Source: an uncultured cyanobacterium (GTDB lineage: Bacteria > Cyanobacteriota > Cyanobacteriia > PCC-9006 > JAAUQQ01). Taken from it: 64,000 nt of DNA. Below, in pieces: positions 26,286 to 42,682 of this stretch. The position numbers and the translations under genes were made by a program. Below the pieces are notes generated by a model that saw only the letters and a program-made list of their open reading frames with translations, was not told the origin of the DNA and ran no database searches. The stretch is taken from the NCBI GenBank assembly GCA_963718615.1, contig OY970368.1, positions 2,048,001 to 2,112,000 of the forward strand, in the 5' to 3' direction. How positions within the stretch are numbered: the first letter of the stretch is position 1; every line of letters begins with the position of its first letter.

Positions 26286-26666
26286 TTAATTCCCAAAATT
26301 CTGAATTTGGCGCTTGAGGCGATCGCTAATGCCATCACAAACAATCTCACACAACTCAAAAACCCGAGGATCAATAATTTTATAGTAGGCACTCACCCCC
26401 TTGGGTTGCCGCTCCAAAATTCCGGCCTGGGTCATAATCTTGAGATGCTTCGACAAATTGGCCTGACTAAACCCCGTGGCCTCGGTCAGCTCCATTACAT
26501 TCATCGGCCCCCCCCGCAAACAATTCAGGATCTGTAACCGGGTGACCTCCGATAGCACCTTGAAGTAGTCCGCAAGTAGCGCCAGACTATCGGGGGATAG
26601 CGACGAAGGAGATGAAGGCATAGGCAGCGGGCAATCAAAGTCCAAGAGGGAATGGGAGACCTCCAT
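26286..26666 (-). CDS. ArsR/SmtB family transcriptional regulator (true start 26666 or 26621; the 297-aa ORF is over-extended across feoA)
   Basis: FKVLSEVTRLQILNCL...NVMELTEATGFSQANLSKHLKIM..AGIL...YY.I.D..VFELCEIVC. Confidence 0.88.
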   Translation of the reverse strand: MEVSHSLLDFDCPLPMPSSPSSLSPDSLALLADYFKVLSEVTRLQILNCLRGGPMNVMELTEATGFSQANLSKHLKIMTQAGILERQPKGVSAYYKIIDPRVFELCEIVCDGISDRLKRQIQNFGN

Positions 26667-26710
26667 TTTACGGGACTCATCCTCTTTTTCTGAAGTCTGT
26701 GCAATAATCA

Positions 26711-26725
26711 TGAAAATAATTGTCA
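26711..26725. promoter_or_regulatory. Fur-type 7-1-7 inverted repeat upstream of feoA
   Basis: TGAAAAT-A-ATTGTCA, 21 bp before the feoA start. Confidence 0.6.
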
Positions 26726-26746
26726 ATAAAGCAGCGGATTTAAGCC

Positions 26747-26989
26747 ATGGGCCTATCTGAATTGCGGATTGGTGAAGTCGCCTTTGTTCAACAGGTGAAT
26801 ACAGAGACTCACGAAGCAGCGCTAAAGGGACGTTTTGAGGCATTGGGAATCTATAGCAATCGACCGATTCGCGTGTTGCGAAAAGCGAGATTTGGTGGAC
26901 CGCTCCATGTTCGGATCGGAGCAACGGCAGAAGTGGTCCTCCGGCGTCAAGAGGCGGCGCGAATTTTAGTGTGGTCGAAGCAATCATGA
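26747..26989 (+). CDS. feoA: Ferrous iron transport protein A
   Basis: LSEL..G....V; RFEALGI; KARFGGPLHVRIG; ATGA overlap with feoB. Confidence 0.9.
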   Translation: MGLSELRIGEVAFVQQVNTETHEAALKGRFEALGIYSNRPIRVLRKARFGGPLHVRIGATAEVVLRRQEAARILVWSKQS

Positions 26990-28845
26990 AACAGAACATC
27001 CAGATCAGTGAGCCTCTGGGGAGTACACGGGAACCCCGAGTTGTTTTGATTGGCATGCCGAACACAGGGAAGTCAACCTTGTTTAACCGTATTACAAAGG
27101 CTGCGGCCTCTGTGGGAAATTGGCCCGGCATGACGGTTTCCTTGCTCCAAGCCCAGGTGCAAATCCAGGGAAAAACCATAGAGGTTGTTGACCTACCGGG
27201 GATCTATGACCTCGGTGGCTTTTCTGATGACGAAAAGGTAGTTCAGGATTTTCTAGAGAATTTTGCGGTTGATTTAGTAATTATTGTCATTAATTCTGCA
27301 CAAATTGATCATCAAATTCGCTTGCTGTTGCAGGCTAAATGTCTCAATCTCCCCATTTTGGTCATTCTGAACATGGCCGATGAAGCGCAGCAGTATGGAA
27401 TTCGGATCGCGGTCGAAGAACTCTCTCGCCGATTAGAGTTGCCTGTGATTCTGCTCAGTGCGAAATATGGCAAAGCGGATCAAGTGATTGAGCAGGCCAT
27501 TGAGCAGGCGATCGCCCCATCCCTCTTCCAGTCGACGCCTGCTTCCCCCCTTCCCAACCTACTCGCCTGTCTTGGGGATCAAGCGGCGATCGCCCCCGCC
27601 ACCCTTGAGAACCTCCTGGCCGGTGTGGTAACCCTGTCTCCCCAACGGGGTGGATTGACGCCTCGAATTGATGCTTTGCTGTTGCATCCCGTTTGGGGAT
27701 TACCGCTGTTTTTTTCAGGCATGTTTTTGGTGTTCTGGCTGATTTGGAGTCTCGGTTTACCCGCCCAAGGACTCATGGGTCAACTTACCGATACTGTCCA
27801 AACATGGGTTTTAGAACCCTTGCTCGCGCCCTTACCACCCTTAATTCAAGATTTTTTCATCAATGGCTGTTGGAATGGCCTTGCAACGGTGGCTTCGTTT
27901 ATTCCCCTCATTCTGCTCTTCTTTATTTTGATGGCTGTCCTCGAAGATAGTGGCTATCTTTCTCGGTCTGCCTATTTGATGGATGCATTGATGGAAAGAC
28001 TGGGGCTAGATGGCCGCAGTTTCGTCATGCAAATGCTGGGGTTTGGTTGTAATGTGCCCGCATTAATGGGAACTCGGGTGATGCGATCGCGATCGCTCCG
28101 TTTACTCACCATGTTAGTCATTCCCTTTTCTCTTTGTTCAGCTCGACTTCAGGTTTTTGTCTTTATCTTGACCGCTGTTTTTTCAGATCAACGGGGGGCG
28201 ATCGCCCTATTTTCGCTCTATCTCCTCAGTTTTGCCGTCGCTCTGATCACCGCCGCCCTACTCCAAAACTTCTTTCCCCACAATGAGCCCTTTGTGCTCG
28301 AACTTCCACCCTATCGTTGGCCCACTTTCCGTCAAGTAATCCTGAGAAGCTGGATCGAGGTTAGGGATTTTCTGACCCGTGCTTCAGGGTTTATTCTTGT
28401 GGGCTGCATAGCAGTTTGGATGGTGACCAATCTTCCTCCTGGAGCGACTCAATTGGACAGTATCGGGGGCCAAATGGGTCAATGGCTCCAGCCAGTGATG
28501 GCTCCGCTGGGCATTGATCCCAAGCTAACCCTTGCCCTGATTTTTGGTTTTGTGGCGAAGGAAGTCGTCGTTGGAGCCTTAGCCGTCATCTATGGTTTAG
28601 GAGGATTGGGATTGAACGATGTCACGTTTCAGCACACGTTAGGGGCACAGATCAGTTTTGCCCAGGGCTATAGCTTTTGCATTTTTTGCCTCCTATATAC
28701 CCCCTGTCTTGCGACGCTGTCCACACTCCTGAATGAATCTAGATCCTGGAAGTTTATGCTATTCTCCCTGGGATTCTCGCTGCTCTTAGCCTGGGCAAGC
28801 AGTTTTGTCTTTTATCAAAGCGCCTTGTTATTAGGCTTTAGCTAG
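26986..28845 (+). CDS. feoB: Ferrous iron transport protein B
   Basis: GMPNTGKS, NWPGMT, DLPG, NMAD GTPase motifs; LEDSGY, GFGCNVPA, FVLELPPY, LYTPC. Confidence 0.95.
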   Translation: MKQNIQISEPLGSTREPRVVLIGMPNTGKSTLFNRITKAAASVGNWPGMTVSLLQAQVQIQGKTIEVVDLPGIYDLGGFSDDEKVVQDFLENFAVDLVIIVINSAQIDHQIRLLLQAKCLNLPILVILNMADEAQQYGIRIAVEELSRRLELPVILLSAKYGKADQVIEQAIEQAIAPSLFQSTPASPLPNLLACLGDQAAIAPATLENLLAGVVTLSPQRGGLTPRIDALLLHPVWGLPLFFSGMFLVFWLIWSLGLPAQGLMGQLTDTVQTWVLEPLLAPLPPLIQDFFINGCWNGLATVASFIPLILLFFILMAVLEDSGYLSRSAYLMDALMERLGLDGRSFVMQMLGFGCNVPALMGTRVMRSRSLRLLTMLVIPFSLCSARLQVFVFILTAVFSDQRGAIALFSLYLLSFAVALITAALLQNFFPHNEPFVLELPPYRWPTFRQVILRSWIEVRDFLTRASGFILVGCIAVWMVTNLPPGATQLDSIGGQMGQWLQPVMAPLGIDPKLTLALIFGFVAKEVVVGALAVIYGLGGLGLNDVTFQHTLGAQISFAQGYSFCIFCLLYTPCLATLSTLLNESRSWKFMLFSLGFSLLLAWASSFVFYQSALLLGFS

Positions 28846-29837
28846 GCCGAATGTTCCGGTTGCAATTGCAGGTCCGGCGCAGAGCCAAAGATTTTATCCG
28901 TAAAGCGCACATACCAGGCAGCGGCTTGCACTTGGATAATGTAGGCCATGGCAATAATCAAGGCAATTTCAGACCCTTTTTCACCGAAGGCGCTCATGGC
29001 GATCGCCAAAGCAATGGACAGATTGCGCATCACAGTACCGTAGACCAGGGCGATCGCATCACCTCGATTAAAGAAGAATTTGCCCACAAGGGTACTGAGT
29101 AGAAAGTTGCCAAGATAGAGGATCGCCAAGGGTAGCAAAAACGAAAGTAGCTCCATGGGATTATTCACAATAGCCTTAGATTTGATTGCCATGGCCACAA
29201 AGACAATGCCGAGAACGCCCAAGGTTGAAAATGTCGGAAACTTTTGTTTGAGGTTTTTGTTGTACTTGTCGACCCCGACCAGTTGAATCAAAATAATTCG
29301 CGTTGCAATCCCCAAAACCATGGGTAAGAAAACAATGATGATAATTTGTTTGAAAATTTCCCTTAAGGGGATTGTAACCACGGCTCCCATTAAAAACTTG
29401 GCGTAAAAAGGCGTGGCAACGGACCCTAAAATTAGACCAATTACGGTCATTTTGACCGCAGCACTAAGATTCCCTTTGGCAAATCCAGTCCAAGAAATCG
29501 TCATCCCACTGGTGGGCAATAGCGAAGCCAGCAGCAGTCCTAAAGCCACGAGGGGGCGATCGCCAAAGAAAAGCTTACCCATGCCAAAGGCAAAGAAGGG
29601 AACAATGGCAAAGTTAATCAGTTGGGTCACGAGCTGAACCTTATAGTCGCCACCAGAAAGAACCTTCTGAAATTGAAGGTTGATCATCATGGGATAAACC
29701 ATGAGAAATGTCAGGGGAATAATCAAAGACTTCAGCGGAGCAGGATTGACGATCGAACCCACGACGATCCCTGCAACCATAAAAATGGGAACGGACCAAA
29801 CCAGATTTTTCTGAAGAAATCCCAGTAACTTCCACAC
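28842..29837 (-). CDS. Acr3/BASS-superfamily (bile acid:Na+ symporter-like) transporter; probable GTG start near 29837 (ORF track start 29924)
   Basis: About 10 TM helices, FLMVYPMM, LLPTSGMTISWTGFAKGN, RNLSIALAIA. Confidence 0.8.
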   Translation of the reverse strand: MWKLLGFLQKNLVWSVPIFMVAGIVVGSIVNPAPLKSLIIPLTFLMVYPMMINLQFQKVLSGGDYKVQLVTQLINFAIVPFFAFGMGKLFFGDRPLVALGLLLASLLPTSGMTISWTGFAKGNLSAAVKMTVIGLILGSVATPFYAKFLMGAVVTIPLREIFKQIIIIVFLPMVLGIATRIILIQLVGVDKYNKNLKQKFPTFSTLGVLGIVFVAMAIKSKAIVNNPMELLSFLLPLAILYLGNFLLSTLVGKFFFNRGDAIALVYGTVMRNLSIALAIAMSAFGEKGSEIALIIAMAYIIQVQAAAWYVRFTDKIFGSAPDLQLQPEHSA

Positions 29838-29932
29838 GAGTTTTGAGCTCCCGTAATCTTGCAAATATTTTTCAAAACCGACGACGCGAGGCTTGAGAGA
29901 ATTAGAATGTCGATCGTCTTCCATTCAATATA

Positions 29933-29946
29933 TAACTAATTAGTTA
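29933..29946. promoter_or_regulatory. Perfect palindromic operator candidate abutting a -10-like TATATT on the minus strand
   Basis: TAACTAATTAGTTA. Confidence 0.65.
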
Positions 29947-30002
29947 ATTAGGCAATCAAGCAATTCTTGTGCCGCTGGCCATTGCCAAAAGAACACCTAG
30001 CC

Positions 30003-31637
30003 CTAAAACTGAAAGACCGTGCGCAGGCTACCCACCCAAATTGGGTCGTGATCCGCTTGATTTTCTGGGTTGATCACCACAAATAATCCAGGAATCAGCG
30101 CCACATGAGCATTGAGTCGATAGCGATACAGGGCTTCTAGATGCCAAGCCGAATCCTGCTCCTCCGGTCCACCGGTATTGCTGAGCACATGGGGCGGCTG
30201 GCCGAGGATGAAGCCTCCGTAGTTTCCCTTGCCACCCAGATCGGGCAGTCCTAGGGTGACCGCCCAGTTTAAGAGCGTGGCGCGATCGCCTGCCACAACA
30301 CTACCGCCAGAGGTCTCTGCATCCGCAAAGGTCATGCCCACCCAACCGGAGAGTGTTGCTGGTGCACCCAAGCGTAAGTTTGTTTCTAGACCCACATGGT
30401 CCGCTGAAGTCGCCAGATTACCAAAGGGCGCATTCGCGAGCCGACTGCCGGTTCCGCCTGCAACCGCAACCCCATCAACCGCGTAATAGGAATGAGCATA
30501 AGTCAGTCCCAGTTGAACAGTCTTGTTGGGTTGGTATTCAAGTTGGGTAAGAGCGGTGTAATTCCCCTTGAAAAGCCCGATATCGGCATTAGCAGCACTG
30601 TTTTCCTGGGCTAAGTACCCCAAAGAAAGTGTCAGTTGGTCACTGAGATCATAGGCAGCGGTGATACCTGTTCCTGGAAAACCTTGATAATAGATCGGGT
30701 TAAAACGTCCAAATCGCGACACGGAGCCGAGAGTGGGACTTGCCAAACTTCCATTAAACGTGTTCAACGTATTGGCATAGTAGGCCCCTTTGATGGCATC
30801 AACCTGGAGCTGAAGCCGATCATTAACCGGAAAACGGTAAAAGAGTTTGCCAATATCAAGGGTGTTTTGGGTATTGCGATCGAAATTGAGGCGCGTCATG
30901 TTCGTGCCAGTGGTTCGCGTGTTAAATGCCACTGGATTAAGCGCATCCAGACGAATTTTGAGCAGATCTTTGCCCGTAAAACTCGTATCTAGATTGAGCC
31001 GAAGCCGACTGCCCACCGCCAGATTTTCCGGCAAATCGGCTCCACTACCGTTAGGCTTTGTGTCACCCCTGAGTTGATCCAAGGAGAAGACAGCATCCCC
31101 TTGCAAACGCGTTGTAGGAGAGAACTGATGAGATTGCAATTCAGAGGTTTGAAGATCAAGGCGATCGAGTCGCTGATTGAGCGTCACGAGTTCCGCTTGA
31201 AAATCAGATTGAATTCGCTGAACCGCATCCCAATCCTCCTGAGGGATTTGCTCAAAGGAGAAGGTTGTGATTTTCGCTAAACATTGATCGAGAATATCGG
31301 CGAACTCATAACGGCTGATTGCCTGATTGCCTTGAAAAAGCTGCTCCGCAGGATTACGGAAGTCCGAAGGATTAGCCGGAACGCATTGGTATTTTTCCAC
31401 GAGCGATCGCAAAGCCTGAAAGGCCCAGTCCGTCGGCTGTACATCAGCTAATCGATCCACTAGGGGCAAAACTTCGGCAGCCTCAGCAAGCTCGACAGTC
31501 TCGGGGAGGCGATCGCCCAAGGGAACTTCTGCTGCGGCAACCCTTTCACCTTGGACCGCCCAAAACACGGGGAGGAGTAAAGCCAGCGTCAACTCCCCCA
31601 TTTTAGCAATTAGGAAAGGTCGAAATTGATATTTCAT
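30003..31637 (-). CDS. Cyanobacterial SLH/OprB outer-membrane porin (iron-uptake porin family); start uncertain (31637 or about 31600)
   Basis: LADVQPTDWAFQALRSLVEKYQC SLH motif, coiled coil, QFSPTTRL, RLNLDTSFTGKD, C-terminal Phe. Confidence 0.9.
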   Translation of the reverse strand: MKYQFRPFLIAKMGELTLALLLPVFWAVQGERVAAAEVPLGDRLPETVELAEAAEVLPLVDRLADVQPTDWAFQALRSLVEKYQCVPANPSDFRNPAEQLFQGNQAISRYEFADILDQCLAKITTFSFEQIPQEDWDAVQRIQSDFQAELVTLNQRLDRLDLQTSELQSHQFSPTTRLQGDAVFSLDQLRGDTKPNGSGADLPENLAVGSRLRLNLDTSFTGKDLLKIRLDALNPVAFNTRTTGTNMTRLNFDRNTQNTLDIGKLFYRFPVNDRLQLQVDAIKGAYYANTLNTFNGSLASPTLGSVSRFGRFNPIYYQGFPGTGITAAYDLSDQLTLSLGYLAQENSAANADIGLFKGNYTALTQLEYQPNKTVQLGLTYAHSYYAVDGVAVAGGTGSRLANAPFGNLATSADHVGLETNLRLGAPATLSGWVGMTFADAETSGGSVVAGDRATLLNWAVTLGLPDLGGKGNYGGFILGQPPHVLSNTGGPEEQDSAWHLEALYRYRLNAHVALIPGLFVVINPENQADHDPIWVGSLRTVFQF

Positions 31638-31734
31638 ACAGTCACTGAATAAGCTGAAAAGAGATACAGTTGCTTGTCCTTTTCTTTCAGGCATTAGCAA
31701 CCGTATCGATCCAACAACAACTAACTCCACTCAA

Positions 31735-32841
31735 CTAGCCGTTTGCATTCAGTCCCGAGGCGTGAAACACTACAGGTGTCGCTGGACCTAAGGCCAAAAG
31801 CTCAGGAAAATTATGAGCATTAGGCTCATGCATGGCTTGAATTCCTAAGTTTGCCCGATTAAGCAAATCGGCATAGGAGGGCACCACAGCACCCTGACTG
31901 TCGAGGATGGAGTGGTTGAAATTGAAGCCATTGAGATTAAAGGCCATGACGCCAATCCCAAGGGTGGCCGACCAAATCCCAAGGGTGGGAAGTGCCGCCA
32001 GGAGAAAATGAACCGCACGGCTGTTATTCAGGGTCAGCGCAGGGACCAGAACTCTGCCCAGATAGCCCACATGTCCTGCCATCAAGTTGTAGGTGGTTTC
32101 CTGTTGGCCAAATCGATAACCCGCATTGGCTGATTCTAGGTCCGTGGTTTCGCGAATGAGACTCGTGGTGACCAAGGAACCATGCATGGCACTCAGAAAC
32201 GCACCGCCGAAGATACCGGCAACACCAAGCATGTGCAAGGGATGCATCAGCACATTGTGCGCGGCCTGAAGGGATAGCATGAAGTAAAACGTTCCTGAGA
32301 TACCCAAGGGCATTCCCTCAGAGAAACTGCCCTGACCCAGGGGATAAATCAAGAGAATTGCTGTGGCAGCCGTTACGGGTGCGGAAAAAGCAACGGCAAT
32401 CCAGGGTCGCATCCCCAGGCGATAGCTTAACTCCCATTGCCGACCCAAATAGCACCAAATGGCAATGAGGAAATGGAAGATAATCAGTTGATAAGGACCC
32501 CCGTTGTAGAGCCATTCAGCAATGGAATTAGCTTGCCACAGGGGATAAAAGTGCAACCCAATGGCCGCTGATGTGGGAACAACCGCAGCGGTAATGAGAT
32601 TATTACCCCCGAGGATCGAACCGATTACAGGCTCTCGAATGCCCTCCATATCTACATGGGGAGCGGCGATGAAGGCGATCGCAAAAACAATACTAGCGAC
32701 CAACAACGTTGGAATCATCAAGACCCCAAACCAACCGATATAAAGGCGGTTGTGGGTGCTCGTAATCCATTTGGAAAACTGCTCCCACGTCCGCGACAAC
32801 TCAAATTCAGAATTTTGTCTGTTTCGGATTACAGAACTCAT
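31735..32841 (-). CDS. psbA: Atypical photosystem II D1, 'rogue' (group 2-like); not O2-evolving
   Basis: D1 fold with D61E, D170E, E189A, D342L, R334P, an insertion in the QB loop (AGHVGYLGR) and no S264. Y161, H190, H198, H215 and H272 are kept. No ChlF QD motif (CYLGRQW). Confidence 0.88.
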
Positions 32842-32988
32842 CGGTCAGACCTCCAAAAACGAGGATATGTCTGATCCAGTCCGCAACAGTTAAGGGTGAG
32901 CAGTCAGGCTCAGGAAAATTTCAGGCATCCAAAATAATGACGAAATACCGTACTGCTACCCGTAGGACGAACTCTTCAGAACAGCTCC

Positions 32989-33008
32989 ATTGTATAACTA
33001 GATAGCGA
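32989..33008 (-). promoter_or_regulatory. Operator-like motif plus -10 (TACAAT) upstream of rogue psbA
   Basis: Minus strand reads TCGCTATCTAGTTA-TACAAT. Confidence 0.55.
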
Positions 33009-33073
33009 TTTGATTAGCGAACTTTTTGTTAAGCTTTGCCCGTCTAGGCCAAGCGCTAGGCCAAGCGCGGAGA

Positions 33074-33282: not shown

Positions 33283-33825
33283 TCAGACCCACCAGGGTTG
33301 TTCGTCAGTTCGGGGATCGATTTCAGTCCAGGGATAAAGCCAAATGGCATCCCCTTGAATGGCTACATGAACAATCTTGAGGGGACGATCCGCAGGACCT
33401 CGAACCACAACCCCTTCAGGGGTATAGAGAGAACCATGACAGGGGCATTGAAACTGTTGGTCCATGTCATTCCAGGGAAAGGTACAGCCCAGATGGGTAC
33501 AGTTGTTGACAATACCCATGGAGTTCAATGTGCCATCGGCTTCCACGGTGAGATAGGTGGGTTCTCCAGCCAAGCCTGCAATTAAGGCCCTTGTGCCCGG
33601 AGGTTCTGCCAAAATCTGGCTCGCAGGAATCAGAGTTCCCAATTTATCTTTGGCGAGGAAGCCGCCTCCGGCTCCGGCTTCCGCTGGGGGAACAAAAAAT
33701 TTGGCAACGGGATAAAGGCTAGAACTAACCGTGGTTGCGATCGCCGCGCCGGTCAAAAAATTAAGCAACTGACGCCGAGACAGGGACGGACTTTCAACCG
33801 GCATTACATCATCCATAACATCCAT
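33283..33825 (-). CDS. petC: Cytochrome b6f Rieske iron-sulfur protein (alternative PetC copy)
   Basis: Tat SRRQLL, CTHLGC and CPCHGS, VRGPA, WTEIDPRT...WW. Confidence 0.92.
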   Translation of the reverse strand: MDVMDDVMPVESPSLSRRQLLNFLTGAAIATTVSSSLYPVAKFFVPPAEAGAGGGFLAKDKLGTLIPASQILAEPPGTRALIAGLAGEPTYLTVEADGTLNSMGIVNNCTHLGCTFPWNDMDQQFQCPCHGSLYTPEGVVVRGPADRPLKIVHVAIQGDAIWLYPWTEIDPRTDEQPWWV

Positions 33826-33849
33826 TTACTCCGCTGATTTCAACCCGTT

Positions 33850-34068
33850 TCATTTTGAAGAATTCGCTTGAGATTGACGGGTGTTCAAGCCAAATAATCC
33901 GTAAAGCAGACAAGATCCCGCTAGCGCACTCAACGTCGCCATCGTGCCAAAAACATCAAGCGCAATGCCCAGGGATGAGCCTGAATAGACAAACAGCCCC
34001 AGATAAAACAGGCCACTGGCAACAATGAGGCGAATCAGGCGATCGGTAGTTCCAAGGTTATTAAACAT
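33850..34068 (-). CDS. DUF2892 / YgaP-like small membrane protein
   Basis: NLGTTDRLIRL...GSCLLYGLFGLNT. Confidence 0.8.
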   Translation of the reverse strand: MFNNLGTTDRLIRLIVASGLFYLGLFVYSGSSLGIALDVFGTMATLSALAGSCLLYGLFGLNTRQSQANSSK

Positions 34069-34117
34069 GAGTAATACCCTCTCTCAGGAGGATCGATTGA
34101 TTGACTGATGAATGGAT

Positions 34118-34525: not shown

Positions 34526-34619
34526 GAACGACAAATCCTTACGATGGGTCAGAGGAGAGGGAGGAGAAAGTCGACTGAGGACTAAAACGCAACAATCCTT
34601 AACCTCTTTCTGCATTAAA

Positions 34620-34677
34620 CAACCAAATAGTAATTTAGTCAACTCGCCCCCTTGAATCTTTTATAACTATCTAGTAG
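34620..34677. promoter_or_regulatory. Two operator-like motifs in the divergent DUF302/sqr promoter region
   Basis: CAACCA-AA-TAGTAA (34620-34633) and TAACTA-TC-TAGTAG (34664-34677). Confidence 0.5.
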
Positions 34678-34710
34678 AGTAATTGAATAAAGATAGAAGG
34701 ATTGAGCGCC

Positions 34711-36042
34711 ATGGCCAATGTTGTTGTAGTGGGTGCCGGGTTAGCGGGTTTGCCAGCAGCTTACGAGTTGAGGCATTTTTTGCCAATGCAACATACGGTT
34801 ACCCTAGTTTCTAGTGAGTCGCAGTTTACGTTTATCCCAGGGTTAATACAGGTTGCTCTCGATTTAAAGCCGCTCAAGCATGTACAACTGGATCTAGAGC
34901 GTCTCTGCCGGCGTCATGGGTTAAATTGGCTGTCGGGTGCAGTCACGGCCTTGGATCCTGTGGGTCGAACGTTGACGGTGGAGGGACAGGGTTCGTTGCC
35001 CTACGATTATTTGGCGATCGCCACAGGTGCGTCACTAGCGTTTGACCTCGTTCCTGGCCTTGGCCCTGACAACGGCTACACCCAATCGGTTTGTACCCCC
35101 CACCACGCCCTTGCCGCCCGCGAGGCTTGGCTCAAATTTCTAGAAAATCCAGGTCCCCTGGTGGTTGGAGCTGCGCCGGGGGCAGGCTGTTTTGGCCCCG
35201 CTTATGAGTTTGCGCTGATGGCTGAACATGAGCTGCGTCGTCGAGGTCTGCGCGATCGGGTGGCCATCACCTATGTCACGCCTGAGCCCTATGTGGGGCA
35301 TCTGGGGGTTTCAAAGGTTAAAAACGCCGAGACTTTGACTGCTGAGCTGATGAAAAAACGGGGCGTTGAAGTGATTACTAATGCGGTAATCCAATCGGTT
35401 GAACCAGGCCAAATCCTCCTCAGCGACGGTCAGCAGTTACCCTTTCAATATTCGATGATTTTGCCTGCCTTTCGGGGTGTGGGATTTGTCCGTGCGGTGC
35501 CTGACTTGGGAGATGACAAAGGTTTTATTCCCGTTTTGCCAACACAGCGTCATCCTAAGTTTCCGGAGATTTATGCAGCAGGTGTTAGCATTAAGCTGGC
35601 ACAACCGGATCAAACATTAGTTCCCATTGGTTTGCCCAAGAGCGGCCAAATGGCAGAGGCGATGGCCACTGCTGTTGCCCATAACATCGCAGTTGAACTG
35701 GGAGCACTGCAAGATTCTCTTGTCATTCCGACGCTTGATGCCCTCTGCTTTGCAGAATTTGGTGATACCGGTATTGCCTACATTGCAGCGCCAGTGCTGC
35801 CCGACCCCAAAACCGGTAAACGCAAAAACTCCTATGCAGTAAGGGGGGCTTGGATTGTTTGGGTGAAAGCTGCTTTTGAAGAGTATTTCATGGCTAAAAT
35901 GCGGTTGGGTGTCGGGATGCCCTGGTACGAGAGGTTAGGCCTCAAAACCCTATTTGGGCTGAAGCTTCTGAAAAGCGTTGCATCCCACGAACAAACCACC
36001 GTTCCAGAGGACAACAGCCCATCCTCAAGCTTAACAACCTAA
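34711..36042 (+). CDS. sqr: Sulfide:quinone oxidoreductase, type I-like
   Basis: GAGLAG FAD motif; three conserved Cys in SVCT, GCFGPAYE and LCFAEFGDTG; PKSGQMAE; KAAFEEYF. Confidence 0.85.
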   Translation: MANVVVVGAGLAGLPAAYELRHFLPMQHTVTLVSSESQFTFIPGLIQVALDLKPLKHVQLDLERLCRRHGLNWLSGAVTALDPVGRTLTVEGQGSLPYDYLAIATGASLAFDLVPGLGPDNGYTQSVCTPHHALAAREAWLKFLENPGPLVVGAAPGAGCFGPAYEFALMAEHELRRRGLRDRVAITYVTPEPYVGHLGVSKVKNAETLTAELMKKRGVEVITNAVIQSVEPGQILLSDGQQLPFQYSMILPAFRGVGFVRAVPDLGDDKGFIPVLPTQRHPKFPEIYAAGVSIKLAQPDQTLVPIGLPKSGQMAEAMATAVAHNIAVELGALQDSLVIPTLDALCFAEFGDTGIAYIAAPVLPDPKTGKRKNSYAVRGAWIVWVKAAFEEYFMAKMRLGVGMPWYERLGLKTLFGLKLLKSVASHEQTTVPEDNSPSSSLTT

Positions 36043-36082
36043 GGTACTGATCAATCGTTCTTGCTGATCCTTTGGTGTGCAG

Positions 36083-36577
36083 ATGAACAGTCACCGCTCC
36101 GATACCTTGACCAATCCAGAAGCCAATGAACAGCACTTTAAAGCCTTAGCCGATCGCTTTAAGCTTTTGAGTGATCCCAGTCGCCTCCGAATCCTTTCTG
36201 CACTGTGTCAGCAAGAGTATAATGTCACTGAAATTTGTGAGCTGACGGGCCTGAATCAGGCCAACGTTTCCAAGCATTTACAATTGCTCAAATACGCAGG
36301 CGTAGTGCGGTGTAATCGCGTTGGGATTTGCCGTTACTACCGCGTTATTGATCGGGATTTATTAGACCTCTGCTCTAAACCTTTAGCTGAGTTTAAGGAA
36401 TTGCCGCAAATTGAAACTTTAGGAGAAGATCACTGTGTTGAAAAAACAAGTTCAAACCAGACTAATTCGATGGGGACTCAGCCTAGTACTGATAGTAGGT
36501 GCTGTGCTTGGACTACCGGCGATCGCCCAGGCCCAACCCCATCCCGAGGAATTGGCCAAGGCAGTGCAGTCGATTGA
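36083..36577 (+). CDS. ArsR/SmtB family regulator (Cys-rich; C-terminal tail overlaps the next gene)
   Basis: FKLLSDPSRLRILSALC...NVTEICELTGLNQANVSKHL..L..AG.V.C.R.G.CRYY...LLDLC. Confidence 0.85.
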   Translation: MNSHRSDTLTNPEANEQHFKALADRFKLLSDPSRLRILSALCQQEYNVTEICELTGLNQANVSKHLQLLKYAGVVRCNRVGICRYYRVIDRDLLDLCSKPLAEFKELPQIETLGEDHCVEKTSSNQTNSMGTQPSTDSRCCAWTTGDRPGPTPSRGIGQGSAVD

Positions 36578-37064
36578 AAATCTGGATGCCCTGCGCAGCG
36601 ATTTAGCAGCCTATCTCAAAGACACCTCTGAGCCTCCCACCGCAGAAACGATGAAGCAGGTTTGTAAACCGGTTGGCATGAAGGCAGTACAATTGAGTCA
36701 GGAAAATGGCTGGCAGGTCAAGCAAATTGCCAGCAAGTATCGCAACCCCAACCATGCACCCAGTACGCCCTCAGAGCGGCAGGCATTAAAGGAATTTGAG
36801 CGTCAGCCTGAGCTCATGGGGTTCTGGCAATCCGAGACCGTTGGCGATCAAGCTGGATTGCGCTATTACCGTCGCATTAACGTGGAGGAAAGCTGTTTGG
36901 CCTGTCATGGTTCAAAAGCAAGCCGTCCCGAATTTGTTCAGAATAACTATCCCCAGGATTTGGCCTACAACTTTAAGGTGGGAGATTTACGCGGCATGTA
37001 TTCAGTATTTATGCCGGACGTGACCCAACAGGTTGTAGAGCAAGCCTTGAGTGCAAACTCATAG
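36435..37064 (+). CDS. Tll0287-like / DUF3365 c-type heme protein, exported
   Basis: Signal peptide, QVCKPVG (candidate axial Cys), KYRNPNHAP, CLACH, GDLRGMYSV; AGGAG RBS before the GTG. Confidence 0.85.
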   Translation: MLKKQVQTRLIRWGLSLVLIVGAVLGLPAIAQAQPHPEELAKAVQSIENLDALRSDLAAYLKDTSEPPTAETMKQVCKPVGMKAVQLSQENGWQVKQIASKYRNPNHAPSTPSERQALKEFERQPELMGFWQSETVGDQAGLRYYRRINVEESCLACHGSKASRPEFVQNNYPQDLAYNFKVGDLRGMYSVFMPDVTQQVVEQALSANS

Positions 37065-37079
37065 AGGTCCAAGCCAATT

Positions 37080-37610
37080 ATGCGTCAACTTCTTCTTCAA
37101 CTTGCGCTGCTGAGTACTATCGCTTTGGTCTTGATCACAGGACTGGGAGGGTCGTTCTCAAAGCCAGCGATCGCCGCCATCCGTCAACTTGAAGAAGCAC
37201 CGGGTCAGATGCTTTACCAATCTCGCCAAATCTTAAACGATCAGCAGGGTAATTCCTGGCAGGCGATCGCCTTTAAGCGTATTCGGGCGAATGGCGATCA
37301 GACCTTCAATCTTCGCTTAGTAGGGTTTCCGGGAATAGTGACCATTGACCGATCGCTTCCCCTCACGTTAACCAATTCCCTGGGACAAGTCTTCATGGCA
37401 TCGGATGCCTCGCAGAAAATTTTTACTGATACCAATGCTCCTGAAAGCCATGTGGGCCAGTATGATCTTCAGCCGATTTTGTCACAGCTTCAACCTGAAT
37501 TGTCCTGGCAATTAGATTTACCCACCCAATCGTCTGAGCCGGTCACGCTGTCGATAGGCTCAAGCGTTATTCAAGAATGGCAGGCGATCGCCCAATCTAA
37601 CTCAAATTAA
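37080..37610 (+). CDS. DUF3122 domain protein
   Basis: AAIRQLEEAPGQMLYQSRQ.L.D..G.SWQAIAFK, LRLVGFPG, VGQYDL. Confidence 0.8.
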   Translation: MRQLLLQLALLSTIALVLITGLGGSFSKPAIAAIRQLEEAPGQMLYQSRQILNDQQGNSWQAIAFKRIRANGDQTFNLRLVGFPGIVTIDRSLPLTLTNSLGQVFMASDASQKIFTDTNAPESHVGQYDLQPILSQLQPELSWQLDLPTQSSEPVTLSIGSSVIQEWQAIAQSNSN

Positions 37611-37739
37611 CTCGAATAACGACTGATCGCTTTCCATACCAAAGCAGCCCTCAAGGCTGGAGCATCACGGACAGAACTCCTAGCAATAGAGCGGTCCATT
37701 CATTCAATCTTGTCACCCTGAAAACTTGGAAGAATAATT

Positions 37740-38387
37740 ATGAAATTGAGAAATCGTCAATCCCAAAATCGTTGCTACAATCATTCCTCTCGCCGAAACG
37801 GCTCAGGAAAAGCGGGTAAAGCCTGTAGTATGGCTCTGTTAGCTTCTATTATGACCTTAGCCGCCAGTTCTAGTCCTCCCCTCGCAGCCAGTTCCCTCGA
37901 CGCCAAAACGCAGCAGGTGATGGTCGAATCGATCCAAGATGAGTATCATGCCAAAGCGTTTTATAACGCGGTAATTGAGAAGTTTGGCCCAGTTCGTCCC
38001 TTCATCAATATTGTTCAAGCGGAAGAGCGCCATGCCCAACGATGGGTGGCTTTATTCAACCAGTATGGACTGCCGGTTCCTGAAGACAGCTTTGCTGGAA
38101 AAATTGCGGCCCCTGCAACCCTATCAGAAGCCTGTGAACTCGCAATTGCCGCAGAGATTGCCAATGTTAAAATGTATGATGGCTTCCTTGAATTCGTAAC
38201 CGAACCTGATTTGCGAACGATTTTTAGTCAACTGCGGAATGTATCTGAGAATCAGCACAAGGTTGCGTTCGAGCGCTGTGCAAATCGTGTCCCTGGGGAA
38301 GGACAAGGTCAAGGCCAAGGTCGTCAGGGTCAAGGTCGTCAGGGTCAAGGTCGTCAGGGTCAAGGCTTAGGATGGAGGATGAGATGA
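37740..38387 (+). CDS. Ferritin-like (DUF2202-like) exported protein with Gly/Gln/Arg tail
   Basis: DEYHAKAFY..VI.KFG.VRPF.NI..AEERH, EIANV.MYD, H..AFERC; tail CAAGGTCGTCAGGGT x3 (38316-38360). Confidence 0.75.
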   Translation: MKLRNRQSQNRCYNHSSRRNGSGKAGKACSMALLASIMTLAASSSPPLAASSLDAKTQQVMVESIQDEYHAKAFYNAVIEKFGPVRPFINIVQAEERHAQRWVALFNQYGLPVPEDSFAGKIAAPATLSEACELAIAAEIANVKMYDGFLEFVTEPDLRTIFSQLRNVSENQHKVAFERCANRVPGEGQGQGQGRQGQGRQGQGRQGQGLGWRMR

Positions 38388-39190
38388 CTCAGTTCAAACA
38401 ATCGTTTTCAACGGTTTATGGCCCTGTGCAATCCTGGCGATTTGGGCGATCGCTCGGCATCGATCCGATTGGTTTGCGATCGACCTGTTCGTTTAACTGC
38501 GTCTATTGTCAGTTGGGGATCATTCAAGATCAAACCATGACGCGCAGCCGGTTTGTCGAAACCCAACAGATTGTTGAAGAACTTAAGCAAATCGACCCAG
38601 TCAAGACCCCCTATGATGTGGTGACCTTGAGCGGCAGTGGAGAGCCAACGCTGGCGCTCAATCTAGCAGAAATTATCACCCAGGCCAAGACGATCACGGG
38701 CCGTCCCGTTGTGGTTTTAACCAATGGATCGTTGTTGGGCGATCGCGAGGTTCAAGCAGCCCTCAATCTCGCCGATCAAGTTGCCGTTAAACTTGACGCA
38801 GTTTCAGTCAAACAACTGCAACGGGTCAATCGCCCCACAAGGGAGATGCAATGCTCAGACCTCTTTGCTCATCTCCAGTTCTTTGCCGATCATTATTGGG
38901 GGGAATTGGCGTTGCAGACGATGGTCCTTAGCCCTTGGTCTGCCCCCGAGAAAGCCCAATATATCGAAATGTTGCAACAGTACCAACCGGACGAAGTGCA
39001 GCTCAACGCCCCTGCTCGTCCTCAGCCAAAAACCCGCCAACTGGAAGCACGGGGAAATGCCCCCTTCGAGACCAGTTCTTCTGCACTTCAGACCCTACAA
39101 TGCGTGACAACGACAACACTACAAGACTTTGCCGAAGAGATTGAACGATTAACCGGCATTCCCACGCGATACCCGCAGCTACAGCATTAG
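38384..39190 (+). CDS. Radical SAM protein (COG0731-like Fe-S oxidoreductase)
   Basis: YGPV.SWRFGRSLGID, CSFNCVYC, SGSGEPTL, LTNG; ATGA overlap with the upstream gene. Confidence 0.85.
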   Translation: MTQFKQSFSTVYGPVQSWRFGRSLGIDPIGLRSTCSFNCVYCQLGIIQDQTMTRSRFVETQQIVEELKQIDPVKTPYDVVTLSGSGEPTLALNLAEIITQAKTITGRPVVVLTNGSLLGDREVQAALNLADQVAVKLDAVSVKQLQRVNRPTREMQCSDLFAHLQFFADHYWGELALQTMVLSPWSAPEKAQYIEMLQQYQPDEVQLNAPARPQPKTRQLEARGNAPFETSSSALQTLQCVTTTTLQDFAEEIERLTGIPTRYPQLQH

Positions 39191-39270
39191 TCCAGCCGCG
39201 CTTAAGTTTGGCCCGATCAATTGGGTCAGATTTGTAAAGATAAAACACAACGTCGTTCAGGTATCCGATC

Positions 39271-39287
39271 AATCGCTATACAGTTAT
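39271..39287 (+). promoter_or_regulatory. Operator-like motif upstream of bchE
   Basis: AATCGCTATACAGTTAT, 15/17 identical to the rogue-psbA site. Confidence 0.55.
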
Positions 39288-39340
39288 CTAAAGATTAAGC
39301 AAGCTGGTTTTATCGTCAACCTTGTGACAGGGGTCAATCC

Positions 39341-41380
39341 ATGCGTATCCTCATGATTCAGCCCAACTACCATTCTGGGGGAGCCGAAATTGCCGGAAAT
39401 TGGCCTCCTAGCTGGGTTCCTTACGTTGGCGGAGCGCTAAAGCAAGCAGGGTTTGACCAGGTTCGCTTTATCGATGCCATGACTAATTACATCGATGACG
39501 TTGCCCTCGCCGCCATGATTGAGCAGCATCAACCGGATGTAGTGCTTGCAACTGCTATCACACCGATGATTTATCAGTCGCAAACAACGCTACAAATTGT
39601 GAAGGCGGTTTGTCCCTCAGCAGTCACGGTCATGGGGGGAATTCATCCCACCTATATGTACCGCGAAGTTCTCCAGGAGGCCCCGTGGATAGACTATATT
39701 ATTCGGGGTGAAGGCGAAGAAATTACGGTCAATTTGATGCGGGCGATCGCGGAAGGGCGCGATCGCCAAGACCGCGAATCCATTTTAGGCTTAGCTTACA
39801 TCGATGAGACTGGTCAGATTGTTGCAACCCCTGCCCATCCCCCCATTCGAGACCTCAATACCCTTTCACCAGATTGGACTTTATTAGATTGGGATAAATA
39901 TATTTATACGCCGTTGAATGTGCGAGTTGCCGTTCCCAATTTTGCGCGCGGTTGTCCCTTTCGCTGTCGATTTTGTTCCCAATGGAAATTTTGGCGTAAA
40001 TATCGAGCTCGCAAGCCCAAACAATTTGTCGATGAAATTGAATATTTAGTGAAAGAGCATCAGGTTGGCTTCTTTATTTTAGCGGATGAAGAACCAACCA
40101 TTAGCAAAGCTCGATTTGTTGCCCTGTGTGAGGAGTTAATCGACCGTAATCTGGGTGTCCATTGGGGGATTAATACCCGTGTAACCGATATCCTGCGTGA
40201 TGAAGCCGAATTACCTCTCTATCGCAAGGCCGGTTTAGTTCATGTCTCTCTGGGGACAGAAGCGGCTGCCCAGCTTAATCTCAATGTCTTTCGCAAGGAA
40301 ACAACCATCGCAGACAATAAACGGGCCGTTAAGCTCCTGCGAGACCATGGTATTGTTGCCGAGGTTCAGTTCATTATGGGACTTCCCAGCGAACTTCCTG
40401 AAACCATCGAAGAAACCTATCGGATGGCGCGGGATTGGGGCGCAGATATGACCAATTGGAATATGTACACTCCTTGGCCCTTTGCCGAGCTGTTTCAAGA
40501 TCTGGAAGATAAGGTTGAAGTTCGCGATTATTCCCACTATAACTTTGTAACGCCCATTATTAAGCCGGATCACATGACCCGCGAAGCCGTGCTCGAAGGG
40601 GTTTTGCGAAACTATGCCCGTTTTTATGGGTGGAAGTTTTTGGAATATTGGTTTACCCGCGATGGCTTCAAGCGACGCTATCTCTTGGGCTGCTTATGGG
40701 CCTTTGTCACGACCACCCTGAACAAACGCTTTTATAATTTGAAGCGCATTAAGCGTAAAGGTGTTCATGCTGAAATCGAATTTGGCTTTGATGAATCTCG
40801 CATTCTTTCTGAGGAGGCGATGGCCCGTTTGAAGGCAGCTAAACTCGCTGATGTGGAGTTTCCTGAGGGCAAAAATCCTCAGTTGGTTAATGGCATTTCT
40901 AGTGGTGCTTCTGAGGGAATTCCCGGCAGTATTGCAGCCTGTGGAGCACCGCCAGATGTGTCAGAGTCTTCAATTCTAGATCCTGTTGAATCGGAACTTC
41001 AACTGATCATTGTCCATGGGGATGAAACAAGTCGAATCGCCCTACGGAAGGGATTGCGATCGCAGCCCGGCCTAGAAGTCGCTAGCGAAGCAACCAACGG
41101 CGAAACAGGGCTGATTTTGCTTGACTCTATCATTGTGGATGTCGCAATCGTAACAGCCCAATTGCCGGATATGTCATTAAGTACCTTTTGGCAACGCGCA
41201 CAAGCACAAGCAGGATCTTGTCATCCCTTCAAGCTGTTAGTGCTCACGGAGGCAGCGACACCACTAGAAGTACTAGAAGAGGCCGGTATGGCCCACTGCC
41301 CAGCAGACTGGCCCCCGGAAAAAATTGCTGAGATCATCCAATCTCTACAAACACAAGCCAAAGAACTCATTACAACCTAA
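39341..41380 (+). CDS. bchE: O2-independent Mg-protoporphyrin IX monomethyl ester cyclase (B12 radical SAM) with C-terminal receiver-like domain
   Basis: MRILMIQPNYHSGGAEIAGNWPP, B12-binding region, RGCPFRCRFCSQWKFW, ILADEEPT, VSLGTEAAAQ, YTPWPF; REC-like fold from about 40997. Confidence 0.9.
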   Translation: MRILMIQPNYHSGGAEIAGNWPPSWVPYVGGALKQAGFDQVRFIDAMTNYIDDVALAAMIEQHQPDVVLATAITPMIYQSQTTLQIVKAVCPSAVTVMGGIHPTYMYREVLQEAPWIDYIIRGEGEEITVNLMRAIAEGRDRQDRESILGLAYIDETGQIVATPAHPPIRDLNTLSPDWTLLDWDKYIYTPLNVRVAVPNFARGCPFRCRFCSQWKFWRKYRARKPKQFVDEIEYLVKEHQVGFFILADEEPTISKARFVALCEELIDRNLGVHWGINTRVTDILRDEAELPLYRKAGLVHVSLGTEAAAQLNLNVFRKETTIADNKRAVKLLRDHGIVAEVQFIMGLPSELPETIEETYRMARDWGADMTNWNMYTPWPFAELFQDLEDKVEVRDYSHYNFVTPIIKPDHMTREAVLEGVLRNYARFYGWKFLEYWFTRDGFKRRYLLGCLWAFVTTTLNKRFYNLKRIKRKGVHAEIEFGFDESRILSEEAMARLKAAKLADVEFPEGKNPQLVNGISSGASEGIPGSIAACGAPPDVSESSILDPVESELQLIIVHGDETSRIALRKGLRSQPGLEVASEATNGETGLILLDSIIVDVAIVTAQLPDMSLSTFWQRAQAQAGSCHPFKLLVLTEAATPLEVLEEAGMAHCPADWPPEKIAEIIQSLQTQAKELITT

Positions 41381-41394
41381 ATCCTTAAACACCC

Positions 41395-41428
41395 CAAAAG
41401 GCTCACAGTGTAACGCTTGAGCCTTTTG
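41395..41428. terminator. Rho-independent hairpin after bchE
   Basis: CAAAAGGCTCA...TGAGCCTTTTG. Confidence 0.75.
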
Positions 41429-41429
41429 C

Positions 41430-41460
41430 TTGACTTTCTCATTAGATCACTTTACAGTTA
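41430..41460 (+). promoter_or_regulatory. Sigma70-type promoter of psbA (D1') overlapped by an operator-like motif
   Basis: TTGACT-N17-TACAGT; TCACTT-TA-CAGTTA at 41447-41460. Confidence 0.6.
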
Positions 41461-41575
41461 TATGGTGACACAAGCCCAGTAAGCAAAAAGTTGTCACAAC
41501 CCGTGTTGAGCTATTTTGTCTTTGGCTATTTTGTCATCGTCTCATCATTCATTTTTTCTTAGGACGTTCGAATTT

Positions 41576-42682
41576 ATGACCACAACGTTCAATCAATCTC
41601 CCAGCATCAATGCCTGGGATCGCTTTTGTGATTGGATTACAAGCACAAGCAATCGTCTATATATCGGCTGGTTTGGTGTGCTTTTGATTCCCACTGCTTT
41701 AGTCTCCGCTATTGTTTTCATTCTCGCAATTGTTGCGGCTCCCCCAGTCGATATTGACGGGATTCGTGAGCCAGTTACGGGCTCATTGCTCTATGGCAAT
41801 AATCTGATGACTGCAACAGTTGTTCCGTCATCTAATGCAATTGGTTTGCACTTGTATCCTATTTGGGAAGCTGCCAGCCTAGATGAATGGCTTTACAACG
41901 GTGGCCCTTACCAGATGATTATTTTCCACTTTCTCGTCGCCATCTATGCCTACATGGGGCGTCAGTGGGAACTGAGTTATCGTCTGGGTATGCGGCCTTG
42001 GATTGCGGTTGCTTATTCTGCTCCCGTGGCTGCCGCAACCTCTGTGCTCCTGATCTATCCGATTGGCCAAGGCAGCTTTTCCGATGGCCTCATGCTTGGT
42101 GTTTCTGGCACGTTCAATTTCATGATCGTGTTTACAGCTGAGCATAACTTGCTGATGCATCCTTTCCATATGTTGGGTGTTATCGGGGTATTTGGCGGAG
42201 CTCTGTTCTCGGCTATGCATGGTTCTTTGGTAACAAGTTCTTTGGTTCGTGAAACCAGCGAAGTCGAATCTCTCAACCAGGGTTATAAGTTCGGTCAAGA
42301 AGAAGAAACCTACAATATTGTTGCGGCTCACGGCTACTTTGGTCGCCTGATCTTCCAATATGCCTCGTTCAACAACAGTCGGTCTCTGCATTTTTTCCTA
42401 GCAGCTTGGCCCGTGGTGGGGATTTGGTTTGCTGCCCTAGGCATCAGCACCATGGGCTTTAATTTGAACGGATTTAACTTCAATCAGTCGGTTCTCGATA
42501 GCCAAGGTCGTGTGATTAATACCTGGGCCGATGTCTTGAACCGGGCCAATCTAGGCATTGAGGTGATTCACGAACGGAATGCTCACAATTTCCCGCTCGA
42601 CCTTGCCTCTGGCACAGCACAACCTGTTGCCATCAGTGCTCTGAGCGGTTCTCCGGCCATTGCTCCAACTCTTGCTGGATAA
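41576..42682 (+). CDS. psbA: Photosystem II D1', low-oxygen (group 3) form
   Basis: Mn-cluster residues D170, E189, H332, E333, H337, D342 and A344 all intact; D1' signature G80A, F158L, T286A, plus P173M; ATG at 41576. Confidence 0.92.

Follow-up and report, generated by a model that had tools for sequence, protein, structure and literature searches.

A palindrome shared by the promoter regions of SQR, rogue D1, D1′ and BchE genes points to a candidate regulon in a 14-kb divergent gene array of an uncultured cyanobacterium

We analysed a stretch of 64,000 nucleotides (hereafter the window) covering positions 2,048,001 to 2,112,000 of the closed 6.10-Mb genome of an uncultured cyanobacterium. 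The window carries a gene cluster, or island, in which a rogue D1 gene and a D1′ gene (both psbA), a type I SQR, an additional PetC, a Tll0287-like heme protein and BchE stand in one 14-kb divergent array. The same palindrome, an 8-2-8 element of the form TATAACTA-NN-TAGTTATA, is found in five promoter regions of this array, which hold six of the 19 best sites of the whole genome. On balance we favour the reading that these genes form one regulon for photosynthesis under sulfidic or oxygen-poor conditions, probably under the control of ArsR_B, the ArsR-family regulator linked to SQR. What is new here is the palindrome, and with it the candidate regulon and operator; the kind of cluster is itself known. 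An earlier note on this DNA had proposed that the locus acts as one unit. The shared palindrome favours that idea, and the mosaic character of the locus, the whole set of which is not conserved, counts against it.

The two arms of the array diverge from the spacer between the DUF302 and SQR genes. The leftward arm (minus strand) runs through DUF302, DUF2892, PetC, a 441-bp gap, rogue D1, a porin and an SBF-family transporter; the rightward arm (plus strand) through SQR, ArsR_B, the Tll0287-like protein, DUF3122, a ferritin-like protein, a radical SAM protein, BchE and D1′. The palindrome was discovered by comparing this spacer with 28 such spacers of other genomes. Two blocks of the spacer were matched in 21 and 19 of the 28, compared with a maximum of 5 in shuffled controls, and both are copies of the palindrome. 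A weight matrix was built around the NN centre from SQR upstream regions of other genomes only (124 instances, from 75 of 110 loci). The six sites that it located in the array are as follows.

29929-29950: site before the SBF gene, TATATAACTAATTAGTTAATTA; 29.5 bits, genome rank 1, centre 16 nt from the start of the open reading frame (ORF)
32991-33012: site upstream of rogue D1, TGTATAACTAGATAGCGATTTG; 18.4 bits, rank 9, centre 161 nt from the start codon
34616-34637 and 34660-34681: two sites in the DUF302/SQR spacer; 23.5 and 19.7 bits, ranks 2 and 7
39269-39290: site upstream of bchE, TCAATCGCTATACAGTTATCTA; 15.5 bits, rank 19, centre 61 nt from the start codon
41443-41464: site upstream of D1′, TAGATCACTTTACAGTTATATG; 16.7 bits, rank 14, centre 122 nt from the start codon

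The second spacer site (34660-34681) is the sole exact TAACTANNTAGTA in the 6.1-Mb genome, and a promoter-like match at 41430-41458 extends with its second hexamer, TACAGT, into the D1′ site. Sites of at least 14 bits number 47 genome-wide, 6 of them within 1.4 kb of island spacers; in 2000 shuffles of the island intergenic DNA such sites averaged 0.06 and never exceeded 3. All ten window matches of at least 11 bits lie between 29925 and 41451, one of them inside bchE. The three standard psbA genes of this genome have no site upstream (at most 9.9 bits), and the ArsR_A/feoA spacer, outside the array, has none either (best 6.7 bits). Other high-scoring sites of the genome are inside genes or before unrelated genes, apart from two that are taken up below.

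The genes of the array were identified by Pfam and NCBIfam scans, in which every gene that the earlier note had named was recovered at its place.

28842-29924, minus strand: SBF-family (PF01758) membrane transporter; Pfam SBF 96.7 bits
30003-31730, minus strand: OprB-type outer-membrane porin, "iron uptake porin"; PF04966, NF033921 515.7 bits against a cut-off of 100
31735-32841, minus strand: psbA, rogue D1; TIGR01151 588 bits, slightly below the cut-off of 596
33283-33825, minus strand: PetC paralogue, an extra Rieske subunit of cytochrome b6f; NF045928 284 bits against a cut-off of 250, with CTHLGC and CPCHGS motifs
33850-34068, minus strand: DUF2892/YgaP-like small membrane protein; PF11127, 55.7 bits
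34118-34528, minus strand: DUF302; PF03625, 88.5 bits, ATG at 34528
34529-34710: DUF302/SQR divergent spacer, 182 bp
34711-36042, plus strand: type I sulfide:quinone oxidoreductase (SQR), by similarity to solved type I SQRs
36077-36577, plus strand: ArsR_B, an ArsR/SmtB-family regulator; NF033788, 78 bits
36435-37064, plus strand: Tll0287-like c-type heme protein with a signal peptide-like stretch; PF11845, 113 bits
37080-37610, plus strand: DUF3122; PF11320, 159 bits
37740-38387, plus strand: ferritin-like protein; Rubrerythrin match of 21 bits, below the cut-off of 22.8
38372-39190, plus strand: small radical SAM protein; Radical_SAM 55.7 bits, CSFNCVYC
39341-41380, plus strand: BchE; TIGR02026 751.6 bits against a cut-off of 481, PF02310 (B12-binding) and PF04055, CPFRCRFC
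41576-42682, plus strand: psbA, D1′; TIGR01151, 717.8 bits

The two psbA genes lie on opposite strands, 8.7 kb apart, as had been described. They were typed by diagnostic residues following PMC4408414; here and below, what we take from the literature is limited to the portions of the cited papers available to us. Group 2 D1 proteins mostly have E at position 170 and D, N, R, Q or A at 189, have partly lost the C-terminal ligands, keep H252 but have one extra residue inserted where G253 stands, mostly replace R334 by P and keep N335 (PMC4408414). The protein encoded at 31735-32841 has E170, A189, P334, N335 and L342 together with A80, L158 and A286; H252 is kept and followed by a one-residue insertion (V), and the ligands H332, E333, H337 and A344 are retained. 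By these residues it is assigned to Group 2 (rogue) D1. The D1′ translation, read from the ATG at 41576, has standard D1 numbering and served to read these positions. In the protein encoded at 41576-42682 the ligands of the Mn cluster are complete (D170, E189, H332, E333, H337, D342 and A344), and A80, L158, A286 and Q130 are present. A complete ligand set with A80, L158 and A286 is the signature of Group 3 (PMC4408414), and the protein is predicted to be a Group 3 D1 (D1′, the microaerobic type). Both identities given in the earlier note are thus borne out by the diagnostic residues. The other three psbA genes of the genome belong to Group 4 (standard).

The flavoprotein gene at 34711-36042 is predicted to encode a type I SQR. 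Its product aligned over residues 4-431 with the Acidithiobacillus ferrooxidans structures 3sz0/3t2z (E 3.9e-94) and with Aquifex aeolicus 3hyv (9.6e-78), and the three conserved Cys residues align (sVCT, GCFGPAYE, CFAeFGD). The nearest relatives are those of Leptolyngbya sp. Heron Island J, Leptolyngbya sp. PCC 7375, Nodosilinea and their relatives (63-77% identity). From its family match and motifs, BchE is the predicted oxygen-independent Mg-protoporphyrin IX monomethyl ester cyclase. The Tll0287-like protein matched 5b82 (Tll0287) at E 1.3e-55; its CLACH motif aligns, as does the Cys of the upstream VCxPVG. SQR, BchE, the Tll0287-like protein and DUF302 are each encoded once in the genome. 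The PetC paralogue is 47% identical to the housekeeping petC at 3.466 Mb, which lies directly before petA; the label "PetC2" for the paralogue rests on its position and context, apart from the petCA operon. The predicted model of DUF3122 (pLDDT 92) has an N-terminal membrane helix and an all-beta domain, and a Foldseek comparison with solved structures returned no relative (best E 0.06). The start codon of the porin gene is uncertain; the gene is co-directional with rogue D1 and lies 4 nt after it. Three tandem 15-nt units (38308-38365) encode the GQGR-rich C-terminal tail of the ferritin-like protein.

ArsR_B is read as an ORF of 166 aa, the last 143 nt of which (36435-36577) also form the start of the Tll0287-like gene. 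Most homologues have 95-135 aa, and the low-complexity tail of ArsR_B may not be real protein. In an alignment of 69 ArsR sequences (67 from SQR loci and the two of the window), its residues C44, C54, C79 and C99 are conserved in 48, 48, 51 and 66 sequences. Its best solved relatives are Rv0081, SmtB and CzrA. A BigR/SqrR-type cysteine pair was considered for ArsR_B and rejected, as the alignment with SmtB sets the Cys of that type opposite V50 and no BigR or SqrR chain was matched.

Operators of the ArsR family have two half-sites around a 2-bp centre. This form, the position of the gene and a report on Synechocystis together suggest that ArsR_B may bind the palindrome. In that report, a review, SuoR binds the shared promoter region of the suo genes and represses both arms (PMC4307280). 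ArsR_B is the positional counterpart of SuoR, and DUF302 that of SuoC. On plasmid pSYSM of Synechocystis PCC 6803, as in the window, SQR is followed by an ArsR gene with DUF302 divergent from it, and the Tll0287-like (DUF3365) and DUF3122 genes come after the regulator. The palindrome is shared too: the 117-bp DUF302/SQR spacer of pSYSM contains the single strong site of the 7-kb locus (23.2 bits), whereas the window spacer has two. The suo genes lie on a plasmid and have a chrA (suoT)-DUF302 arm, whereas the cluster of the window is chromosomal and lacks chrA. Compared with suo, its left arm is extended by DUF2892, PetC, rogue D1, the porin and SBF, its right arm by the ferritin-like protein, the radical SAM protein, BchE and D1′, and four further sites stand before the added genes.

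The likeness to suo also raises the question of whether the cluster is an arsenic or metal resistance island resembling the arsenite-induced suo system, with two ArsR genes and an ACR3-like pump as its core. Published accounts treat the Synechocystis counterpart as an arsenic resistance system that includes an arsenite transporter (PMC4307280, PMC5061849), two ArsR/SmtB-family genes are present in the window, and ACR3 is the top NCBIfam match of the SBF protein. However, that match reaches 86 bits against the TIGR00832 cut-off of 282.8, and the protein was classified as SBF-family only. The ORFs of the region gave no match to chrA (suoT), arsB, arsC, arsH or arsM in the Pfam and NCBIfam scans, and the neighbours are photosynthesis and chlorophyll genes. 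We therefore give the arsenic explanation very little credence.

Under the regulon that we favour, ArsR_B would occupy the palindromes as a repressor, and its four conserved cysteines would sense sulfide, a product of sulfide or the loss of oxygen and cause its release. Judging from the roles of these families elsewhere, SQR would deliver electrons from sulfide into plastoquinone, the extra Rieske protein would tune cytochrome b6f to a reduced quinone pool, and D1′ or rogue D1 in place of the standard D1 would give a photosystem II that makes little or no oxygen. BchE would sustain chlorophyll synthesis without O2, while FeoAB and the porin would import the ferrous iron of anoxic water. The Tll0287-like and DUF3122 proteins may act outside the cytoplasm in sulfide oxidation or sensing. 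Rogue D1 might silence photosystem II and D1′ might restart it, as the earlier note had supposed.

The weight matrix was also applied to other genomes, where the background is 0.144 sites per kb. Upstream of intact Group 3 psbA genes a site was present in 12 of the 12 that were fetched, with 17-30 bits and at 60-215 nt before the start codon. These sites are at least 662 nt from any SQR start, and three of the 12 loci have no SQR. PetC paralogues had a site in 21 of 30 cases. On plasmid pAQ7 of Picosynechococcus sp. PCC 7002, a site of 21.9 bits precedes the DUF2892-PetC genes. An IS4-family element lies on this plasmid between sqr and the PetC-DUF2892 pair, and apparently split a once-contiguous module.

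Conservation of the neighbourhood was surveyed in three ways. In 35 cyanobacterial loci with close SQR relatives, searched with the island proteins, most had SBF-PetC-DUF2892-DUF302 divergent from SQR-(ArsR)-Tll0287-DUF3122; rogue D1 was found in 5 of these loci, D1′ in a single one and BchE in none. The second survey took an even sample of 401 genomes of the class, 114 of which have type I SQR, and covered about 10 kb on either side of 110 full-length SQR matches in other genomes. The counts in these 110 SQR loci were:

DUF3122: 57
Tll0287-like: 46
ArsR: 46
PetC paralogue: 29
SBF: 23
DUF302: 20
DUF2892: 14
Group 2 psbA: 11, plus 1 broken
Group 3 psbA: 9, plus 1 broken and 1 cut by the locus end
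ferritin-like: 9
radical SAM: 7
Group 4 psbA: 0

The Tll0287-like and DUF3122 genes are thus those that most consistently accompany type I SQR in cyanobacteria, Synechocystis 6803 among them. Since the same genes recur around type I SQR and the palindrome matches of the window are confined to the island, the clustering goes beyond chance.

In the third survey, BchE was present in 45 of the 401 genomes, and in none of the 110 sampled loci did it lie within about 10 kb of SQR. By coordinates, SQR and BchE are within 20 kb of each other in G000, G395, G380, G227 and G276. Among the 44 other BchE loci, a Group 3 psbA is found within 9 kb in 3, a Group 2 psbA in 1 and the radical SAM gene nearby in 4. 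By hand count, SQR is present in 36 of the 44 other BchE genomes compared with 77 of the 356 genomes without BchE, and also in 25 of 28 genomes whose psbA matches D1′ of the window at 85% identity or more. The whole set is not one conserved module: Group 2 psbA, Group 3 psbA, sqr and bchE lie within about 30 kb only in 3 of the 401 genomes, namely this one, G395 and G380 (Leptolyngbya sp. PCC 7375). G395 and G380 also have the run SBF-FeoB-FeoA-BchE. Seven genomes of the same order were available (62-93% completeness); in one of them, G003, a single 8-kb contig carries both rogue D1 and SQR. No BchE was seen in these seven incomplete genomes, and its absence cannot be claimed because psbA itself went unmatched in 4 of the 7 under the E-value cut-off applied. 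The modules of the cluster recur apart from one another in most other cyanobacteria; their gathering is lineage-specific, and that of the window is the most complete variant among the sampled genomes.

Two shortened psbA genes were seen in the survey. In G380 a Group 3-like copy beside SQR is cut short after about residue 215 (locus L092, about 6232), with an intact Group 3 copy elsewhere, and in another genome a Group 2-like copy is cut after about residue 250 (locus L133, about 16605). Both are decaying copies or assembly errors.

These surveys bear on a further explanation, that low-oxygen genes came together by chance or by loose co-selection with no common control, rogue D1 serving nitrogen fixation at night and D1′ a microoxic photosystem II. 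The modules are indeed apart in most genomes, as the counts for BchE near SQR (0/110) and for the full set (3/401) indicate, and 8 of the 11 Group 2 loci other than that of the window have no palindrome. The genome also fixes nitrogen, to judge from a nifD that scores over its curated cut-off, and Group 2 D1 has been tied to nitrogenase expression (PMC4408414). No nif gene is in the window, just as the earlier note had it; nifD sits at 4.07 Mb of the same genome, about 2 Mb away, so the link between rogue D1 and diazotrophy holds at the genome level. Against a chance gathering stand the six of the genome's 19 best palindrome sites in island spacers, the occurrence of a Group 2 or Group 3 psbA in 19 of the 110 SQR loci (including three broken or cut copies) against a standard psbA in none, and the arrangement itself, which is repeated in G395 and G380 and partly in G156 and G003. 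We consider this explanation improbable.

Some partial matches to the palindrome were noted near the nif region. At 4,063,128-4,063,171 there are three overlapping AT-rich matches of 15-16 bits without a clear second half-site. They precede the gene of a 532-aa protein with an N-terminal 4Fe-4S ferredoxin part and a C-terminal helix-turn-helix, 9 kb before nifD, which we take to resemble the nif activator CnfR/PatB.

Several observations weigh against one sulfide-responsive regulon under ArsR_B. The regulator was assigned by position and analogy. Against the BigR/SqrR model NF040642, ArsR_B scored 41.5 bits as compared with 155, and a search of the PDB at E 1e-6 matched no BigR/SqrR structure; because both failed, persulfide sensing by ArsR_B is unproven. 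As many as 50 of the 91 site-bearing SQR loci have no ArsR within about 10 kb. The total from which these come, 91 of 105 SQR loci with a site, is partly circular, the model having been built from SQR upstream regions. The site was found in only 3 of the 11 other Group 2 loci, with 8 of 42 BchE genes and with 2 of 25 SBF genes, and in the window the lowest scores among the six belong to the D1′ and BchE sites (16.7 and 15.5 bits). Counts from related genomes do not represent independent observations, and some linkages are concealed by fragmented assemblies. The assignment of the psbA genes to groups is based on diagnostic residues. In the region, 20 promoter-like and 19 terminator-like matches were obtained, against 19.2 and 19.1 in shuffles, and transcription units are not defined because such matches are no commoner than in shuffled DNA. 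Finally, the palindrome occurs with at least 16 bits between the second heme oxygenase and second AcsF genes (2,965,608) and upstream of cydA (2,003,488).

The cydA, second heme oxygenase and second AcsF genes are classic low-oxygen genes. Because the palindrome is also found at them, the signal may be low oxygen and not sulfide, and the word "sulfide" in the earlier description has gained no support. The cluster might then be a hypoxia regulon governed by an oxygen- or redox-sensing factor, either ArsR_B with an Fe-S cluster on its cysteines or a regulator encoded elsewhere, with SQR as merely one member. Four conserved cysteines in an SQR-linked ArsR would suit such a sensor, and so would Rv0081, the best solved relative of ArsR_B, which we take to be a factor of a hypoxia regulon. 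The site-bearing SQR loci without an adjacent ArsR are also in keeping with a regulator encoded elsewhere. In Synechocystis, low oxygen induces D1′ and petC2 when no sulfide is present (PMC4500134, PMC11304991). On the other hand, the palindrome was discovered in SQR promoters and is commonest there, and it lies within the Synechocystis spacer that SuoR reportedly binds. ChlR, the known activator at low oxygen, has a different box, TTMCC-N3/4-GGWAA (PMC13421787), which was absent from the island spacers and from the acsF/ho and cydA regions; the two pattern matches in the window (20390 and 39976) are both within coding regions. Taken together, we hold a hypoxia regulon to be unlikely, though well short of negligible.

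If the SQR-linked ArsR does act on the palindrome, a wider and more tentative idea may be put forward, which we regard as possible rather than likely. A SuoR-type ArsR with an 8-2-8 operator might serve widely among cyanobacteria as a switch, separate from ChlR, that links sulfide oxidation with the replacement of D1 by D1′. To its regulon some lineages would have added rogue D1, PetC2, BchE, the second AcsF with heme oxygenase, and cytochrome bd; here almost the whole regulon would be gathered in one 14-kb divergent array. Such an array would amount to a natural cassette with which a cell could change between oxygenic and sulfide-driven photosynthesis.

Most pairings of these genes are already in print, and the earlier note had claimed novelty too broadly: sqr with Group 2 or Group 3 psbA and arsR (PMC5061849), sqr with petC2 (PMC11304991) and SQR-ArsR/DUF302 (PMC4307280) have each been described. 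Grim and Dick (2016) found sqr near Group 2 or Group 3 psbA in 15 genomes and never near Group 1 or Group 4, with arsR beside sqr in 27, and called linked regulation of sqr and psbA untested (PMC5061849). Our own sample agrees (Group 2 in 11, Group 3 in 9 and Group 4 in 0 of 110 loci). In the portions of that paper available to us only proximity is described, without PetC, Tll0287, DUF3122 or BchE as neighbours and without a cis-element; the neighbours counted here may already be present in part in its supplements (Figure S4 and gene lists) or in those of PMC4408414. Neither the sqr-Tll0287-DUF3122 linkage nor the whole set nor a common cis-element was found described in the openly accessible literature. 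The sqr-psbA link has thus been known since 2016 as proximity, and a shared candidate operator with a candidate repressor in the same array gives a concrete handle on its regulation.

Other known systems resemble the cluster in single features. In Synechocystis 6803 and Synechococcus 7002, ChlR is a single factor that induces D1′ and the low-oxygen tetrapyrrole enzymes (chlAII-ho2-hemN, psbA1), and BchE is rare, being found in 2 of 37 species (PMC4500134). In Cyanothece 7425, bchE directly follows chlAII-ho2-hemN. ChlR differs in being a MarR-type activator with another box, and the palindrome set of the window includes sqr. In hot-spring metagenome-assembled genomes of Thermostichales, type I sqr is flanked by petC2, which was read as electron transport under hypoxia (PMC11304991); there it is a pair only, while PetC of the window is one gene of a 14-gene divergent array. 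In Thermosynechococcus elongatus, the His/Cys-ligated c-type heme protein Tll0287 appears when D1′ (PsbA2) is the sole D1, and a role in H2S oxidation has been proposed for it (Motomura 2017, as quoted in 10.1101/2023.02.13.528314). The Tll0287-like gene of the window differs in being linked to sqr, as in 46 of the 110 SQR loci, and shares its array with D1′. Among the psbA transcripts of a sulfidic mat, type 3 dominated (PMC8651085), and in PCC 7002 polysulfide raised psbA and petC transcripts (PMC12466478). The means by which cyanobacteria lower O2 production and raise sulfide use matter for modern sulfidic mats and for models that seek to explain low Proterozoic oxygen.

On the left the array adjoins a further ArsR gene and the feoAB genes.

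26286-26663, minus strand: ArsR_A, an ArsR/SmtB-family regulator; PF01022 HTH_5, NF033788 80.6 bits against a cut-off of 55 (trimmed 125-aa form)
26747-26989, plus strand: FeoA; PF04023, 60.7 bits
26971-28845, plus strand: FeoB; FeoB_N, Gate and FeoB_C domains

The 297-aa ORF of ArsR_A is an over-extension, with the helix-turn-helix at its C-terminal end. The feoAB genes are convergent with the SBF gene and divergent from ArsR_A.

The island shows no sign of recent foreign origin, because its density of HIP1 elements equals that of the genome (1.46/kb against 1.44/kb genome-wide); its GC content is unremarkable as well, and tRNA genes and integrases at its borders were not searched for. Most of the direct and inverted repeats found there proved to be HIP1 elements, and the repeats offered no lead. 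The nearest transposase-like genes, an rve-type integrase/transposase (52267-53136) and an IS1-type transposase (60546-61310), lie 10-18 kb downstream of the cluster.

Just past the cluster, Xfp, a histidine-phosphatase-family protein and acetate kinase are encoded in a row (46530-51047), a fermentative route that would suit dark anoxia; there was no palindrome match of at least 11 bits near this row. Elsewhere in the genome, 0.87 Mb away, the region 1,209,977-1,217,954 encodes paralogues of DUF2892 (55% identity), DUF3122 (45%) and Xfp (61%). It looks like a second, smaller copy of part of the neighbourhood, and no palindrome match of at least 11 bits was found in it. To the left of ArsR_A, two giant ORFs at 11871-16533 and 19333-25164 carry a TPS secretion domain and a CHAT protease domain, and between them are a DUF928 gene and a CHASE2-GGDEF gene. 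The CHAT domain of the first continues in a separate, overlapping ORF of 237 aa, which suggests a frameshift.

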